Shown piece after piece: positions 382-4,859 of a stretch of 11,464 nt of DNA. The notes under the pieces were generated by a model. The model had not been told where the DNA came from and ran no database searches. It was given only the letters and a program-made list of their open reading frames with translations. A program made the position numbers and the translations under genes. Numbering within the stretch: the first letter of the stretch is position 1; each line of letters starts with the position of its first letter. The DNA is from a virus (taxonomy: Duplodnaviria > Heunggongvirae > Uroviricota > Caudoviricetes), in IMG/VR virus record IMGVR_UViG_2663763286_000004, positions 1 to 11,464 of that record; one strand, written 5' to 3'.

Positions 382-600
382 GCCACCGATGCTTTCCTGG
401 CTGAAGTGCGGGCGCAGGGCGTGGATGCTGCTATAGAAGCTGCAAAAAATCTGGTGGCCCAAGAATATGAGTATAAGGATTTCAAAGCGGCGCAGAGTGA
501 TTGCTGTATGCACCCTGGTTCAGACCTGGTAGGGAAGGTTGAAATGACTGAGTGGTTAGTTGACTTTGCTGCCCAGCTTCGCAAAGGAGGCAACCAGTGA
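382..600 (+). pseudogene. 3' fragment (72 codons) of a gene interrupted by the IS insertion; unknown function
   Basis: Open frame begins exactly at the IS terminus with no start codon of its own; its stop (TGA 598-600) overlaps the GTG start of the next gene (GTGA), suggesting it was part of the same operon. Confidence 0.45.
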
Positions 601-1085
601 GCGAAATTAATTACCAGGCACTGCGTGAGGCGGCGGAACGTGCAATTCCAGCAATGGAACGCCTGTTAATGTTGCCAGCTGATGATGATTTGTTAAGTGA
701 ACAGGAACTTAAAGATTACGGTGTGGATATTGATGCGCTCAACGCCTTCAAATTTCTGGCCGGACCAGAAACCGTGCTGGCACTACTGGATGAACGGGAA
801 AGGAACCAGCAATACATCAAATCCCGCGACCAGGAGAACGAGGATATTGCGCTAACGGTAGGGAAGTTGCGCGTTGAGCTTGAGGCAGAAAAACAGCGGG
901 CAAAGGATCTGTTTATGGAAAATGCTCGGCTTAAGTCAGGTATAGCCGGTCTGATACACCTCGGTATTCGATATGCAGATGTTGATGTCATGAAAATTGC
1001 TGGAGATGCCCAGCTTTCTACCCCATGCACTGACAGCATCATAAACAGCATTGCAACAGGCATTCGCATCAACGGAGGTGAGTAG
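597..1085 (+). CDS. Ead/Ea22-like family protein (lambdoid early-region protein of unknown function), 162 aa
   Basis: N-terminal motif NYQALREAAERA and central FLAGPETVLALLDERE segment resemble Ead/Ea22-like proteins as I recall them; central coiled-coil region; GTG start overlapping upstream stop. Confidence 0.5.
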   Translation: MSEINYQALREAAERAIPAMERLLMLPADDDLLSEQELKDYGVDIDALNAFKFLAGPETVLALLDERERNQQYIKSRDQENEDIALTVGKLRVELEAEKQRAKDLFMENARLKSGIAGLIHLGIRYADVDVMKIAGDAQLSTPCTDSIINSIATGIRINGGE

Positions 1086-1261
1086 TGCGTGTGGCATGTA
1101 TTGGCTTGTTACCGTACCCGACTCGTTTTTGGGCTTCTGCGCTAATTGCAAAGCCACAGGTCCTGATGGCTGACAACATCACCCCAGCACCAAAGCGCCG
1201 CCATACCGGTATTGCAGCGGCACGACGAGCAGCAAAGAGACGCAGGAGAGCAAAGCGATGA
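1085..1261 (+). CDS. Possible small arginine-rich ORF (58 aa from GTG, or 31 aa from ATG at 1166); coding status uncertain
   Basis: Open frame bridging two genes with stop overlapping next ATG (ATGA); very basic C-terminus (AARRAAKRRRRAKR); no convincing ribosome-binding site. Confidence 0.2.
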   Translation: MRVACIGLLPYPTRFWASALIAKPQVLMADNITPAPKRRHTGIAAARRAAKRRRRAKR

Positions 1262-1434
1262 AAAACCGTAAGGCAAAACGACTTTTTTTACAGCGACCTG
1301 TGCGTGTGGTGGAGCTGGTTATTAGCAACCATAAGATAGCGGTACTCCATCCATTTGGTCAGGTGGCTTTTGCCGCAAAGCGTAAGCCTACTGCGTCACA
1401 GAACAGGCGGAAGAAAGGGTACGCAGTAAGATGA
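1258..1434 (+). CDS. Small basic protein (58 aa), paralogue of the next gene
   Basis: MKNRKAK... N-terminus and KPTASQNRRK C-terminal motif shared with downstream ORF; ATGA overlap with flanking genes. Confidence 0.45.
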   Translation: MKNRKAKRLFLQRPVRVVELVISNHKIAVLHPFGQVAFAAKRKPTASQNRRKKGYAVR

Positions 1435-1619
1435 AAAACCGTAAAGCAAAGATTCTGTTAGTTCGTAGAAACGCTCCTGGCGTCTGGCAGTGGGTGAGAC
1501 TCAGCAACCGACGGATGGGGTTGATGAAATATTACGGGATGATGGATTGTGGTTTTTGCAAAAAGCCCAGCGCGGCGCAAAACCGCTGGAAAAACCATTT
1601 GCGCACTAAAGGAGAGTGA
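1431..1619 (+). CDS. Small basic protein (62 aa), paralogue of the previous gene
   Basis: MKNRKAK... N-terminus (19/21 nt identical to 1258-1278) and KPSAAQNRWK motif; stop 1 nt before the strong RBS/ATG of the next gene. Confidence 0.5.
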   Translation: MKNRKAKILLVRRNAPGVWQWVRLSNRRMGLMKYYGMMDCGFCKKPSAAQNRWKNHLRTKGE

Positions 1620-1620
1620 T

Positions 1621-2136
1621 ATGGCGTTAACACACCGCGAACTCTGTCAGATTGCGTACAAGTTCCTTAAGCGCAACGGGTTCAAGGTTTGTTTTCATGA
1701 CCGCTTTATAGCTGTAACCAGTACCGGAGAACAGCCAGATGCTATGGGGTTCAGAAATTCAGCATCATGCCTGATAGAGGCGAAGTGTTCTCGTGCTGAC
1801 TTGTTGGCAGATAGAAAAAAGCGTTTCCGTAAAAATCCCTCACTTGGCATGGGCGACTGGCGATTCTTTATTAGTGAGCCGGGAATTATTTCAGTTGAGG
1901 ATTTACCACCTGGCTGGGGATTACTTCACGTTGTTAACGGAAGAGTACGGAAAGTACATGGGTGGCCCAAGGGTAATTGCTGTTGGGGTAATCCTGACGA
2001 TAAGCCATTTACTGGAAATAAGCAGGTTGAATGCGATTACATGTTGTCTGCATTAAGGCGCATGGAGTTGAGAGGGCACCTTAATGAAATATATGACGGT
2101 GTAATTGTTAATAAGAAAGAAGGAAACGCGGCATGA
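1621..2136 (+). CDS. PD-(D/E)xK nuclease-fold protein (171 aa), possibly MmcB-like
   Basis: Strong RBS AAAGGAGAG 6 nt upstream of ATG 1621 (preferred over the track start 1549). Motif order E7 ... hydrophobic strand FIAVTS - PD40 ... LIE53-A-K55 fits the PD-(D/E)xK catalytic core; SRADL and GWGLL segments recall MmcB-family proteins. Confidence 0.6.
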
Positions 2137-2985: not shown

Positions 2986-3265
2986 TAGTCATGGAAAAAG
3001 CCAGATGATACTTACCGAATATCAGCTCGACCACAAAACCAATAAATCACGTTCAGTATATTTGCTTCGCCACAATAGCCGCGTAAGGAATACCGTACTG
3101 GAGCAAAATCTGACCGTTGAAATGGATAATTACGGGGGCTTCAAGCCAACAATATCGCTTGATGATTTTCCTCGTGGTTTAAGCGAAAGAGAAGCAATGC
3201 TGAAATTAGCAGAATGGCTACAAAGATTAAGCATTGCTATTGAAGATAACTGGTCTGAACCTTAA
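2972..3265 (+). CDS. Hypothetical soluble protein (97 aa) in the AT-rich cassette
   Basis: Long open frame in AT-rich DNA; start uncertain (ATG 2972 or 3005; track extends to TTG 2885). Confidence 0.45.
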   Translation: MWRGNSHGKSQMILTEYQLDHKTNKSRSVYLLRHNSRVRNTVLEQNLTVEMDNYGGFKPTISLDDFPRGLSEREAMLKLAEWLQRLSIAIEDNWSEP

Positions 3266-3271
3266 ATTTAT

Positions 3272-3646
3272 ATGATGACACTAAAACATTTTCTTGACCG
3301 CCCATTATGGGCGGCAGCCGCAGGCTATGACTTTAATTATATGGATTGCATGTCTTATACTGCCAATGCATACGACCATTCGTTCAGCCTGCTGTTTAAT
3401 TCTTTAAGAATATTGCCGCAAACAGAAGTTGGAGAGCTTCATTTATGGCTATTGGGCTTTATCGCGGCTGGAGTTGGTATTGCTGTATGGCCTTTTATTT
3501 TCTGGCTGGTGGCTGTTGTAGTGTGGTTTAAGTGCAAGACGTACCGGAAAAAGTATTTCTTAGGTGATGGAATGACTGATATTGCCAAAATGAACATTGA
3601 AAAATGGACTAAGGAATGTGAAAAGAAATGGCGCAAAAAGAAATGA
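3272..3646 (+). CDS. Membrane protein (124 aa) with hydrophobic hairpin and lysine-rich C-terminal tail
   Basis: LHLWLLGFIAAGVGIAVWPFIFWLVAVVVWF hydrophobic segment (1-2 TM helices) followed by KCKTYRKKYF ... KKWRKKK; AT-rich codon usage distinct from neighbours. Confidence 0.55.
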   Translation: MMTLKHFLDRPLWAAAAGYDFNYMDCMSYTANAYDHSFSLLFNSLRILPQTEVGELHLWLLGFIAAGVGIAVWPFIFWLVAVVVWFKCKTYRKKYFLGDGMTDIAKMNIEKWTKECEKKWRKKK

Positions 3647-4308
3647 CTACTCTAACGACAGCATACTTACAGCAATTGGTATTTTTTGCAGGCGAGGCTA
3701 CTTGTCATCCTGACGCAAACTATTTATTGGAATTTGAGAGGTTAGCGTCACCCGGTATCGTTCTGGAACTGGCCCAACAGGTGCTGGCCTTAAGACAAAA
3801 AGAGCAACATGAAAGTAATACGTGTAGATTGAATTTTGAGCAGTGGCTGGAACAGCAACGCGGAAAAATCGATGTGGACTGTGGTTGTGTGTCTACTGAA
3901 ACATTCATGCACTGGCTGCGGGTAGCTTACGAGGCTGGCAACTATCCGGATATTCCGGATAGTTCGGTGCCAGCGCCAGGAAAGGGCGTCACCGGTGAAC
4001 GTATCCGCATTAAGCCGCATGTTTATCGCGAACTGGTTAACCGTCTCCACGATACAGCGATCAAGTGTGCAGGCACCCGGCAATTACGAGAAAGAATTAG
4101 CCGTGTTTTGGGCGACGTTATTACGCCAGATCATCATAAACAAGCCGAGAAAAGTGACCTGGAAAGGTGTCACCTTGAGGCGGCATTAAACATTAAGCCG
4201 GGGCATACGCTTGGCATTATCGATGCTCTGTTGGTTCATAAGATGGCCAGGGCTTTATTGCCGCTGGTGGCTGAAAAGCATGAGGCGGACCATGCCAACG
4301 AAAGCTGA
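3628..4308 (+). CDS. Hypothetical protein (226 aa; alternative ATGA-coupled start at 3643), distant Ead/Ea22-like relative
   Basis: LASPGIVLELAQQVLALRQKEQ segment resembles the FLAGPETVLALLDERE segment of the 597-1085 protein; overlaps upstream gene end. Confidence 0.55.
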   Translation: MAQKEMTTLTTAYLQQLVFFAGEATCHPDANYLLEFERLASPGIVLELAQQVLALRQKEQHESNTCRLNFEQWLEQQRGKIDVDCGCVSTETFMHWLRVAYEAGNYPDIPDSSVPAPGKGVTGERIRIKPHVYRELVNRLHDTAIKCAGTRQLRERISRVLGDVITPDHHKQAEKSDLERCHLEAALNIKPGHTLGIIDALLVHKMARALLPLVAEKHEADHANES

Positions 4309-4576
4309 GTTACAGGCGCGCATAGAGATTCTTGAAAAAGAGAATGCGAGTCTAAAAGGAATGCTGGCACGGGCGGAAAGGGAATTATCAGGCAAATTCT
4401 TGCCAGAAGAACTGCCACCAGCAGATATACCAGATCGAGTGTCCCGGTGGATGAAGTCTTTTGGTTTACCGTGGGAGGCTTTTTGGTGCTACGAGCATCG
4501 CAGATGGTGTGATGAACTTGATAGCAGTTTCCCCTACTTTGCGGAAGGGAACACCTGCCCTGAGTGTAGGAGGTAG
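4292..4576 (+). CDS. Hypothetical protein (94 aa) with N-terminal coiled coil and C-terminal Cys/His cluster (possible zinc ribbon)
   Basis: ATG 4292 with GAGG upstream preferred over track start 4211; AELQARIEILEKENASLKGMLARAERE heptad-like; C-x2-H-x3-C ... C-P-E-C at the C-terminus. Confidence 0.5.
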   Translation: MPTKAELQARIEILEKENASLKGMLARAERELSGKFLPEELPPADIPDRVSRWMKSFGLPWEAFWCYEHRRWCDELDSSFPYFAEGNTCPECRR

Positions 4577-4580
4577 CGCG

Positions 4581-4859
4581 ATGTTTCGTCCTCGTCCAAT
4601 ACCGCCGAAAATAACTAATGGCTATCAGCCGAATACTCCAGAAATACAGGGGAGCGAGGGGCTTAAACCACCACCAGCACCACGTATTCCGCCTGTAGCA
4701 AGGAACGTATCATTACGACGAGAGTTAATATTAGCCTTGTCGCCCGTTCTGGCTGCCCGCCAGGATTGGGTAAGTAATGATGACCTGGCAGAAAAAATCA
4801 CATCGCTGGTGGATAAAATTCTGCAGATTGGCAATGAGATTACGCTGATCCATTGGTGA
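4581..4859 (+). CDS. Hypothetical protein (92 aa), proline-rich N-terminal half
   Basis: Strong RBS AGGAGG 7 nt upstream of ATG 4581; track start 4461 rejected. Confidence 0.55.
   Translation: MFRPRPIPPKITNGYQPNTPEIQGSEGLKPPPAPRIPPVARNVSLRRELILALSPVLAARQDWVSNDDLAEKITSLVDKILQIGNEITLIHW

Follow-up and report, generated by a model that had tools for sequence, protein, structure and literature searches.

What is the run of small genes that lies upstream of humD in the virus record IMGVR_UViG_2663763286_000004, and how was it assembled? The stretch analysed here (the window, 11,464 nucleotides (nt)) is a segment of a P1-like phage-plasmid, and the block under study occupies positions 380-4859. 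An earlier reading made from the letters of this DNA (the sequence-only reading) had taken the block for a variable cargo region in which mosaic exchange and insertion sequence (IS) activity had installed foreign lambdoid early-region genes. We find that the block is the variable slot between pap and humD of P1-like phage-plasmids, and that it is ordinary for this family. In all likelihood, it represents the distal part of an early, C1-repressed accessory operon in this slot, built as a patchwork of gene modules and later hit by an IS.

A variable slot between pap and humD

The interval between pap and humD is known to vary among relatives of P1. According to the P1 annotation, it holds the pmgT operon, at the head of which lie the C1 operator OpmgT (once called Op88) and predicted sigma-70 promoters that overlap it. 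In the annotation of P7 it is the hea operon, with the operator Op(hea), and lists the Ead-like Upf88.3 together with Upf89.0 and Upf89.5. Ead/Ea22, DUF551, ASCH, eaa, and hypothetical genes occupy the same interval in RCS47, SJ46, D6, an infant-faeces 'P1' isolate, and many IncY plasmids of ~95 kb. The slot has been named as the hot-spot 'RD-5' (pap-lxr; Venturini et al. 2019, PMC6906374) and as 'variable region 8' (pmgT-humD; PMC9603915), and in JL22 pmgT was found to be swapped for an ea22 cluster that includes ra22 (PMC9603915). Genome-wide CRISPR interference in P1 showed that the genes from pmgT through lxr are nonessential, with upfM not tested (PMC10695390).

We tested whether the window block belongs to this slot by its architecture, its right border, and the PmgT/PmgU-family gene that serves as an anchor, and all three were those of the slot. 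The block comprises 14 open reading frames (ORFs) within 382-4859, all on the plus strand. Of their 13 junctions, seven are start/stop overlaps (one GTGA, three ATGA, one of 1 nt, one of 19 nt, and one of 17 nt) and the remainder are gaps of 1-64 nt, so the coupling of small ORFs that had been claimed is real. All ten ORFs tested matched a PHROG family, nine of them with E values from 1e-20 to 1e-123; these families are all of unknown function, but the matches indicate that the ORFs of the block are real conserved phage genes rather than chance reading frames. On the right, the slot ends with a LexA box and humD directly downstream. The PmgT/PmgU-family gene near the distal end of the slot is present both in the window (3628-4308) and in all P1-like comparators. 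The block shares with the slot of P1 and P7 its position directly ahead of the LexA box, humD, phd, and doc, its strand, its tightly coupled small ORFs, and its PmgT/U-family gene. The features of the block and its borders are as follows (aa, amino acids; identities refer to homologues in the named comparators).

1-379, minus strand: left end of an IS3-family (IS629/IS1203-like) element, with orfA at 1-327 (Pfam HTH_Tnp_1, 1.4e-12); orfB, the other end, and the target duplication would lie beyond the window
382-600, plus strand: 3' gene fragment of 72 codons cut by the IS; C-terminal tail module of Ead/Ea22-type and other proteins (C-terminal end of phrog_368, 4.8e-27)
597-1085, plus strand: Ead/Ea22-like protein of 162 aa (PF13935), GTG start overlapping the preceding stop (GTGA); 100% identical in pNADC1036
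1085-1261, plus strand: small basic protein of 58 aa (phrog_13831, 5.3e-40); 100% identical in MH422554 and pNADC1036, 95% over aa 1-43 in the lambdoid TL-2011c
1258-1434, plus strand: small basic protein of 58 aa (phrog_1380, 6.5e-23), ATGA-coupled; 98-100% identical in RCS47 and TL-2011c
1431-1619, plus strand: small basic protein of 62 aa (phrog_1380, 1e-40), ATGA-coupled
1621-2136, plus strand: predicted MmcB-like PD-(D/E)xK nuclease of 171 aa, homologue of P7 Upf89.0
2133-2477, plus strand: 114-aa protein, a module mostly of chromosomal prophages; found at 99% identity in the NMBU-W12E19 chromosomal prophage and in none of the P1-like comparators
2542-2793, plus strand: protein of ~77-83 aa, probable ATG start at 2560 (phrog_3876, 7.2e-53, aligned from aa 7); 98-99% identical in pRHB09-C18_2, SJ46, and pO26_EH2252_2
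2842-2985, plus strand: hydrophobic (putative membrane) peptide of 47 aa, GC content 33% (phrog_5525, 1.4e-20); 85-96% identical in P1-like comparators
3005-3265, plus strand: 86-aa protein (phrog_1258, 2e-44)
3272-3646, plus strand: 124-aa putative membrane protein, hydrophobic in its central segment; seven P1-like comparators have it at 98-100% identity
3628-4308, plus strand: PmgT/PmgU-family protein of 226 aa, from its match in P1
4292-4576, plus strand: 94-aa protein with an N-terminal coiled-coil-like region and a Cys/His-rich C-terminus; 85-100% identical in RCS47, pRHB09-C18_2, pNADC1036, pMBT-5, and pO26_EH2252_2
4581-4859, plus strand: 92-aa protein in place of P1 pmgV through lxr; among the comparators, 100% identical in pMBT-5 and pO26_EH2252_2 only
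4942-4961, plus strand: LexA box, right border of the slot (TGCTGTATAAATGAACAGTA, one mismatch against the P1 site)
4981-5370, plus strand: humD (UmuD'-like; Pfam Peptidase_S24), the first conserved P1 backbone gene on the right

The relatives of this element provided clues to how such an array may be controlled. In all nine of them, a single C1 operator (ATTGCTCTAATAAAT(C/A)T), which has one mismatch to the consensus, overlaps the stop codon of pap, and no further operator match (with up to two mismatches) was found before humD. The window block itself contains no C1 operator. We postulate that in intact relatives one sigma-70 promoter overlapping this operator would transcribe the whole coupled array, and that inactivation of C1 would lead to its early transcription upon derepression. 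The products may then act early in lytic growth, either on host DNA metabolism or on the decision between lysis and lysogeny.

The departure of the block from reference P1 was examined with a 94,800-bp P1 genome assembled from three stretches, which was searched by tblastn with all 14 ORFs. No significant match was found for 13 of them (best E at least 0.25). The exception was ORF 3628-4308, residues 86-214 of which are 84% identical to P1 85117-85524 in the frame of pmgU (E = 1e-71). At the DNA level, P1 aligns to the window only at 3927-4273 and from 4826 rightward. Hence, the earlier statement that no gene of the block resembles a P1 protein stands for 13 ORFs, including the lack of a Hot counterpart, but fails for the PmgT/U relative. 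The window lacks any counterpart of P1 upfM, upfN, upfO, hot (the theta homologue), or lxr; at 4576-4980, these genes and pmgV are replaced by a single 92-aa ORF (4581-4859).

From humD rightward the window follows P1, in agreement with the sequence-only reading. The order humD-phd-doc-pdcA-pdcB-lpa-pacA-pacB (pdcB being DUF968) is collinear to pacB, and the backbone at 4826-10601 aligns to P1 87429-93204 at 92.9% and to SJ46 at 97.7%. The C1 operator ATTGCTCTAATGTATTG at 7301-7317 within this backbone is identical to P1 Olpa. Collinearity of the block itself with canonical P1, by which that reading was to fall, was not seen in the alignment, and the term 'non-P1' therefore applies to the reference strain alone, but not to the P1 family as a whole. 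Among nine relatives, the stretch between the pap stop codon and the start of humD measured 3.3 kb (P1, which has the shortest) to 10.3 kb. In this slot, the reference strain carries the reduced variant rather than the usual form.

The modules of the window recur in the pap-humD slot of P7 (Upf88.3, Upf89.0, and Upf89.5), RCS47, SJ46, D6, and hundreds of E. coli plasmids, and are also found in JL22. The peculiarity of this element that the sequence-only reading had implied is thus lost. What sets this copy apart from the known RD-5 or region 8 is that it lacks hot, lxr, upfM, upfN, upfO, and pmgV, that it carries the rare 92-aa ORF (4581-4859) and the prophage-type 114-aa ORF (2133-2477), and that an IS629-like insertion cuts it off from pap and the C1 operator. 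Its module combination, its rare ORF, its lack of hot and lxr, and its IS insertion amount to variation at the level of the strain, and nothing in the block is categorically new. Since the block is a documented hypervariable slot, the observation re-describes a known feature. Its discovery value is small: the slot, its variability, and its lambdoid-like content had already been documented, and its genes are nonessential.

Several points weigh against our interpretation of the block as the distal part of a C1-repressed operon. The left border of the slot (pap and its C1 operator) lies outside the window, which begins inside the IS. No database record was found to hold the exact combination of modules; the one with the highest coverage accounts for 77% of window 1-5400, split into five pieces. 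The counts of modules across genomes given below reflect DNA similarity at 80% coverage, with categories that are not strictly exclusive. At the left edge, the IS may be a simple insertion or the scar of a deletion or rearrangement. Finally, we infer both the timing of expression and the function of the products.

Two gene pools joined at gene boundaries

The block was compared with 12 comparator loci by local blastn. Collinear stretches were 380-2154 (98.8%) and 2963-4575 with pNADC1036, and 2474-11464 (98.9%) with pO26_EH2252_2; the other comparators have shorter pieces in common with the block. Among 23 distinct breakpoints, 15 fell in boundary or intergenic zones, which account for 25% of the sequence (binomial p = 6e-5), and those outside such zones fell inside the Ead/Ea22 and PmgT/U genes. 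As part of our interpretation, and with the same high probability, the genes of the slot were swapped as single- or few-gene modules by recombination at gene boundaries. The patchwork of alignments and the clustering of breakpoints uphold the earlier view of a variable cargo region built by mosaic exchange. We also considered that the window might be an assembly chimera and rejected this, as pO26_EH2252_2 matches it without a break over 9 kb, across the right part of the block and the backbone.

The modules were counted in 5,426 complete E. coli genomes by DNA similarity with at least 80% query coverage. Three of the segments sampled gave the following counts.

humD-phd-doc anchor (4981-6044): 495 records, 1464 of 1560 places on plasmids
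Window 3005-3646 (a pair of ORFs that P1 lacks): 269 records, 314 of 318 places on plasmids
P1 pmgT 5' part: 192 records, 417 of 434 places on plasmids

That the 5' part of P1 pmgT occurs in fewer E. coli records (192) than window 3005-3646 (269), and that the P1 slot is the shortest of nine, corrects the view of this region taken from the reference strain. Segments farther to the left had a different distribution: window 600-2136 was found at 3134 chromosomal and 680 plasmid places, and window 2100-2600 at 1889 chromosomal and 422 plasmid places. Window 4540-4900 occurred on plasmids only (149 of 149 places, 0 chromosomal) and was present at full length in three of the 5,426 genomes, namely on pMBT-5, pO26_EH2252_2, and the EH031 plasmid.

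Some of the chromosomal places are not what they seem. The best 'chromosomal' full-length match to 600-2136, in EC16, was a candidate for evidence of lambdoid origin and was rejected, since it is a P1-like element in a chromosome record. This record (NZ_CM169485.1) holds at 5.155-5.171 Mb, near its end, a complete P1-like pap-humD-phd-doc-pdcB region, which is either an integrated P1-like prophage or an assembly join; integrated P1-like prophages have been described (PMC10879196). The EC16 region inflates the 'chromosomal' counts of the window modules.

Direct evidence for sharing with lambdoid phages came from individual genomes. The Stx2c phage Stx2_5044 matches window 380-895, 1057-1266, and 1263-2154 at 96-99%, and its gene set sits in the early-left arm, between the recombination genes and the attachment site beside sbcB. 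TL-2011c matches 1070-2154 at 93%, with the genes placed between recT/exo/ssb and xis/int. A chromosomal prophage (NMBU) matches 1602-2557 at 96%, and there the segment is flanked by replication genes and Q, as in a nin-like region. Matches to named lambdoid phages in the phage database end at window 2154. The check for homologous blocks in lambdoid prophages that had been proposed with the sequence-only reading was thus positive for the left part.

Judged by DNA identity (93-99%), the left part of the block (380-2557) consists of modules common to the accessory regions of lambdoid and Stx (Shiga toxin) prophages. The right part (~2474-4859) appears, where it was sampled (3005-3646 and 4540-4900), to be essentially confined to P1-like plasmids and not to be lambdoid. 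Since lambdoid sharing ends in the left part, the description of the block as foreign lambdoid early-region genes fits that part only. The likeness of the window to the exo-xis (ea) and nin-like regions of lambdoid phages consists in the DNA identity of the left part and in the Ead_Ea22 membership of ORF 597-1085. Unlike those regions, the window genes reside in a P1-type plasmid prophage and would be under the control of C1 rather than pL/N, and a lambdoid counterpart is lacking for the right part where it was sampled. Within the slot, these two pools of genes, the one in common with lambdoid phages and the other essentially limited to P1-like plasmids, meet at gene boundaries.

The segment at 2542-3646 forms a low-GC island, with 33-42% GC per ORF against ~48-56% in the flanking ORFs. 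It contains four small ORFs, two of which are hydrophobic (2842-2985 and 3272-3646). This composition suggests that the island has an origin different from that of the adjoining modules.

Gene products and their possible roles

Scans of the block ORFs against Pfam, NCBIfam, and PADLOC yielded nothing beyond Ead_Ea22. ORF 597-1085 matches this Pfam family (PF13935) with 114.5 bits and E = 7.6e-33, against a gathering threshold of 27 bits. The only experimentally studied relative is the Ea22 of lambda and Stx phages, which favours lysogeny (PMC7093339). The C-terminal domain of lambda Ea22 has been solved. The window protein has only the Pfam Ead_Ea22 region in common with this relative: in a phmmer search of ORF 597-1085 against all Protein Data Bank (PDB) sequences, the best E value was 0.62, to unrelated proteins, and the lambda Ea22 entry itself was not listed.

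Two Ead/Ea22 proteins had been claimed for the block. ORF 597-1085 is clearly one, but the other candidate (382-600) is the 72-codon 3' fragment, which has no Pfam match and corresponds to a C-terminal tail outside the Ead_Ea22 domain. This fragment is 99% identical to the C-termini of a 237-aa protein in pNADC1036 and a 217-aa protein in pRHB09-C18_2. The pRHB09-C18_2 relative has the Ead_Ea22 domain at aa 2-149, and the pNADC1036 relative has a different N-terminus. The assignment of a second Ead/Ea22 protein is unproven.

Downstream of the Ead/Ea22 gene, three basic ORFs (1085-1261, 1258-1434, and 1431-1619) all lie 5' of the gene for the predicted nuclease. The latter two are tandem paralogues: both begin with MKNRKAK, both belong to phrog_1380, and both are very basic. 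The cassette formed by these ORFs and the nuclease gene (1085-2136) moves nearly unchanged between the exo-xis regions of lambdoid phages and the C1-controlled early operon of P1-like elements.

ORF 1621-2136 has 325 homologues across Enterobacterales, all of them unnamed. They show no Pfam domain over the homologous region, although a few are fused to Ead_Ea22 or another domain. Across 40 homologues with 59-88% identity, residues D40, E53, and K55 do not vary. An AlphaFold model of the 171-aa protein was confident (mean predicted local distance difference test (pLDDT) 86.9, predicted template modelling score 0.80) and appears to have a restriction-endonuclease-like alpha/beta core. A Foldseek search of viral models (BFVD) returned several matches named 'MmcB family DNA repair protein', and sub-threshold Pfam Hjc matches were present in 16 of the 40 homologues. 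The window protein has no Pfam or NCBIfam match above threshold, and PDB sequence searches with ORFs 597-1085, 1621-2136, and 3628-4308 gave no meaningful match. From the model and the motif, we predict that the product is an MmcB-like PD-(D/E)xK nuclease. It shares the D...ExK residues and the BFVD model match with MmcB-like nucleases (structure 3dnx, SPO1766; the phage 'MmcB family DNA repair protein'), but differs from them in an extra C-terminal helical part and in reaching no Pfam or NCBIfam threshold. In P7, the RefSeq label of the homologue Upf89.0 (4020-4535 of the P7 locus stretch) is 'minor tail protein'. Because fold and motif point to a nuclease, this label is probably an annotation error. 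The prediction offers a testable function for a very widespread 'hypothetical' phage gene; the shuttling of a nuclease-containing cassette between lambdoid and P1-type early operons is an only mildly novel lead.

A rival explanation takes the block for an island for counter-defence or host takeover, with the nuclease, the basic proteins, and Ead/Ea22 as early effectors that neutralise host defences or competing phages. The position in an early, repressor-controlled operon is compatible with this, as are the predicted catalytic triad, invariant among homologues, and the exchange of modules at 96-99% identity between unrelated types of temperate phage. The genes are also all nonessential and highly variable, as is typical of arms-race loci. 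On the other side, no gene received a functional assignment from Pfam or NCBIfam, the literature on lambda and Stx Ea22 describes a pro-lysogenic effect rather than anti-defence (PMC7093339), and the window Ead/Ea22 protein does not match the solved C-terminal domain of lambda Ea22. PADLOC gave no match for the ten ORFs tested (597-1085 to 3628-4308 except 2842-2985; E <= 0.01), which also speaks against such an island, although weakly, because PADLOC models defence systems and not anti-defence proteins. Overall, we consider a counter-defence island unlikely. A related reading, in which the cassette at 1085-2136 (three basic proteins and the predicted nuclease) is an uncharacterised early effector module, for instance for counter-defence or DNA processing, and the whole slot would then be an anti-defence island, is in our judgement slightly less probable again.

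Left edge, PmgT/U gene, and right-hand flank

The IS that had been noted at the boundary of the block is indeed there. Its terminal repeat (...GGGGCGGTTCA) ends at 379, all non-IS similarity starts at 380, and copies with 93-99% identity to the element bear the annotation 'IS3 family' or 'IS3-like element IS1203 family transposase'. The IS interrupts an ORF at about codon 165 of the 237-aa homologue, P1-like plasmids without the IS have these genes in the slot in unchanged order, and the junction between IS and block is found as a single piece in none of the 5,426 complete E. coli genomes. For these reasons, the IS is a late, private insertion, which truncated the first gene and separated the block from its operator; it is not a delivery vehicle. 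Three records cover both halves of the junction, and in them the halves span ~157 bp more than in the window.

The idea that IS activity installed the genes, either as composite or as adjacent cargo of the boundary IS, has thus lost its ground. It could appeal to the contact of the IS3-family element with the block at 379/380, and to the IS629-type element inside the homologous gene set of Stx2_5044, which indicates that IS activity recurs. However, the element cuts into an ORF rather than flanking a cassette, and the same genes lie in the same slot where no IS is present. Moreover, the junction is absent from all 5,426 complete genomes, the IS of the Stx2c phage is at a different site, the breakpoints lie at gene boundaries and not at IS ends, and no second, bracketing IS copy is found in the window. 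Acquisition through the IS is contradicted by this evidence, and we regard it as very improbable. The insertion in Stx2_5044 (7151-8460 of its locus stretch) is independent, at the window equivalent of 1263-1266, and its different site implies that IS629-type insertion into this gene set recurs. The alignments flanking it overlap by 4 bp, which suggests a target duplication.

In our interpretation of the block as the distal part of the slot's operon, the later IS629/IS1203-like insertion would have truncated the gene at the left edge and cut the remaining genes off from operator and promoter. As the IS is oriented against the operon, these genes would be uncoupled from C1 and may be silent or weakly expressed. 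We looked for internal promoters or operators that might restore control downstream of the IS and rejected them: besides the missing C1 operator, promoter-like sites in the block were fewer (2) than in shuffled sequence (7.7 +/- 3.4). Terminator-like sites were at chance level.

For the PmgT/U protein of the distal slot, 819 homologues were found; they measure 168-392 aa and differ at their N-termini, and some are Ead_Ea22 fusions. In the family alignment, the core and C-terminus are conserved and the N-termini are freely swapped. ORF 3628-4308 has no Pfam match, and its AlphaFold model was unusable (mean pLDDT 43.3, from a low-diversity alignment of 26 sequences). In the homologue P0193, a protein of the 4292-4576 type is fused to the preceding, PmgT/U-type protein. 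The names pmgT, pmgU, and pmgV ('putative morphogenetic function') and the annotations of P1 and RCS47 imply genes for head morphogenesis, as do the 'head processing genes' listed for RD-5 (PMC6906374), but this is the least credible of the explanations and already largely contradicted, given that the three genes are nonessential for P1 lytic growth (PMC10695390), that JL22 is inducible and unaffected in lysogenic ability despite its pmgT replacement (PMC9603915), that 13 of the 14 ORFs have no P1 counterpart, and that the lambdoid homologues lie in early or accessory regions and not in structural modules.

The same gene bears on the annotation of P1. The match of the window protein in P1 starts 105 nt upstream of the annotated pmgU start and overlaps the 3' end of pmgT in another frame, and in P7 Upf89.5 is a single ORF of 432 aa. 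Given both observations, a frameshift or mosaic junction seems a better account of the pmgT/pmgU overlap of P1 than two independent genes.

At the other end of the window, a C1-operator-like site (TTTGCTCTAATAAATTG) directly follows pacB at 10603-10619. Downstream of it are matches to the Rfam families isrK (10694-10771, 60.8 bits) and then C4 antisense RNA (10796-10883, 75.9 bits). In related plasmids, the features annotated between pacB and c1 are an ash pseudogene, an icd-like gene, and a KilAC antirepressor. The segment at 10603-10883, and on to 11464, is an immI-like module; in reference P1, pacB is followed directly by c1. This module has already been noted for pTZ20_1P and RCS47 (PMC6906374).

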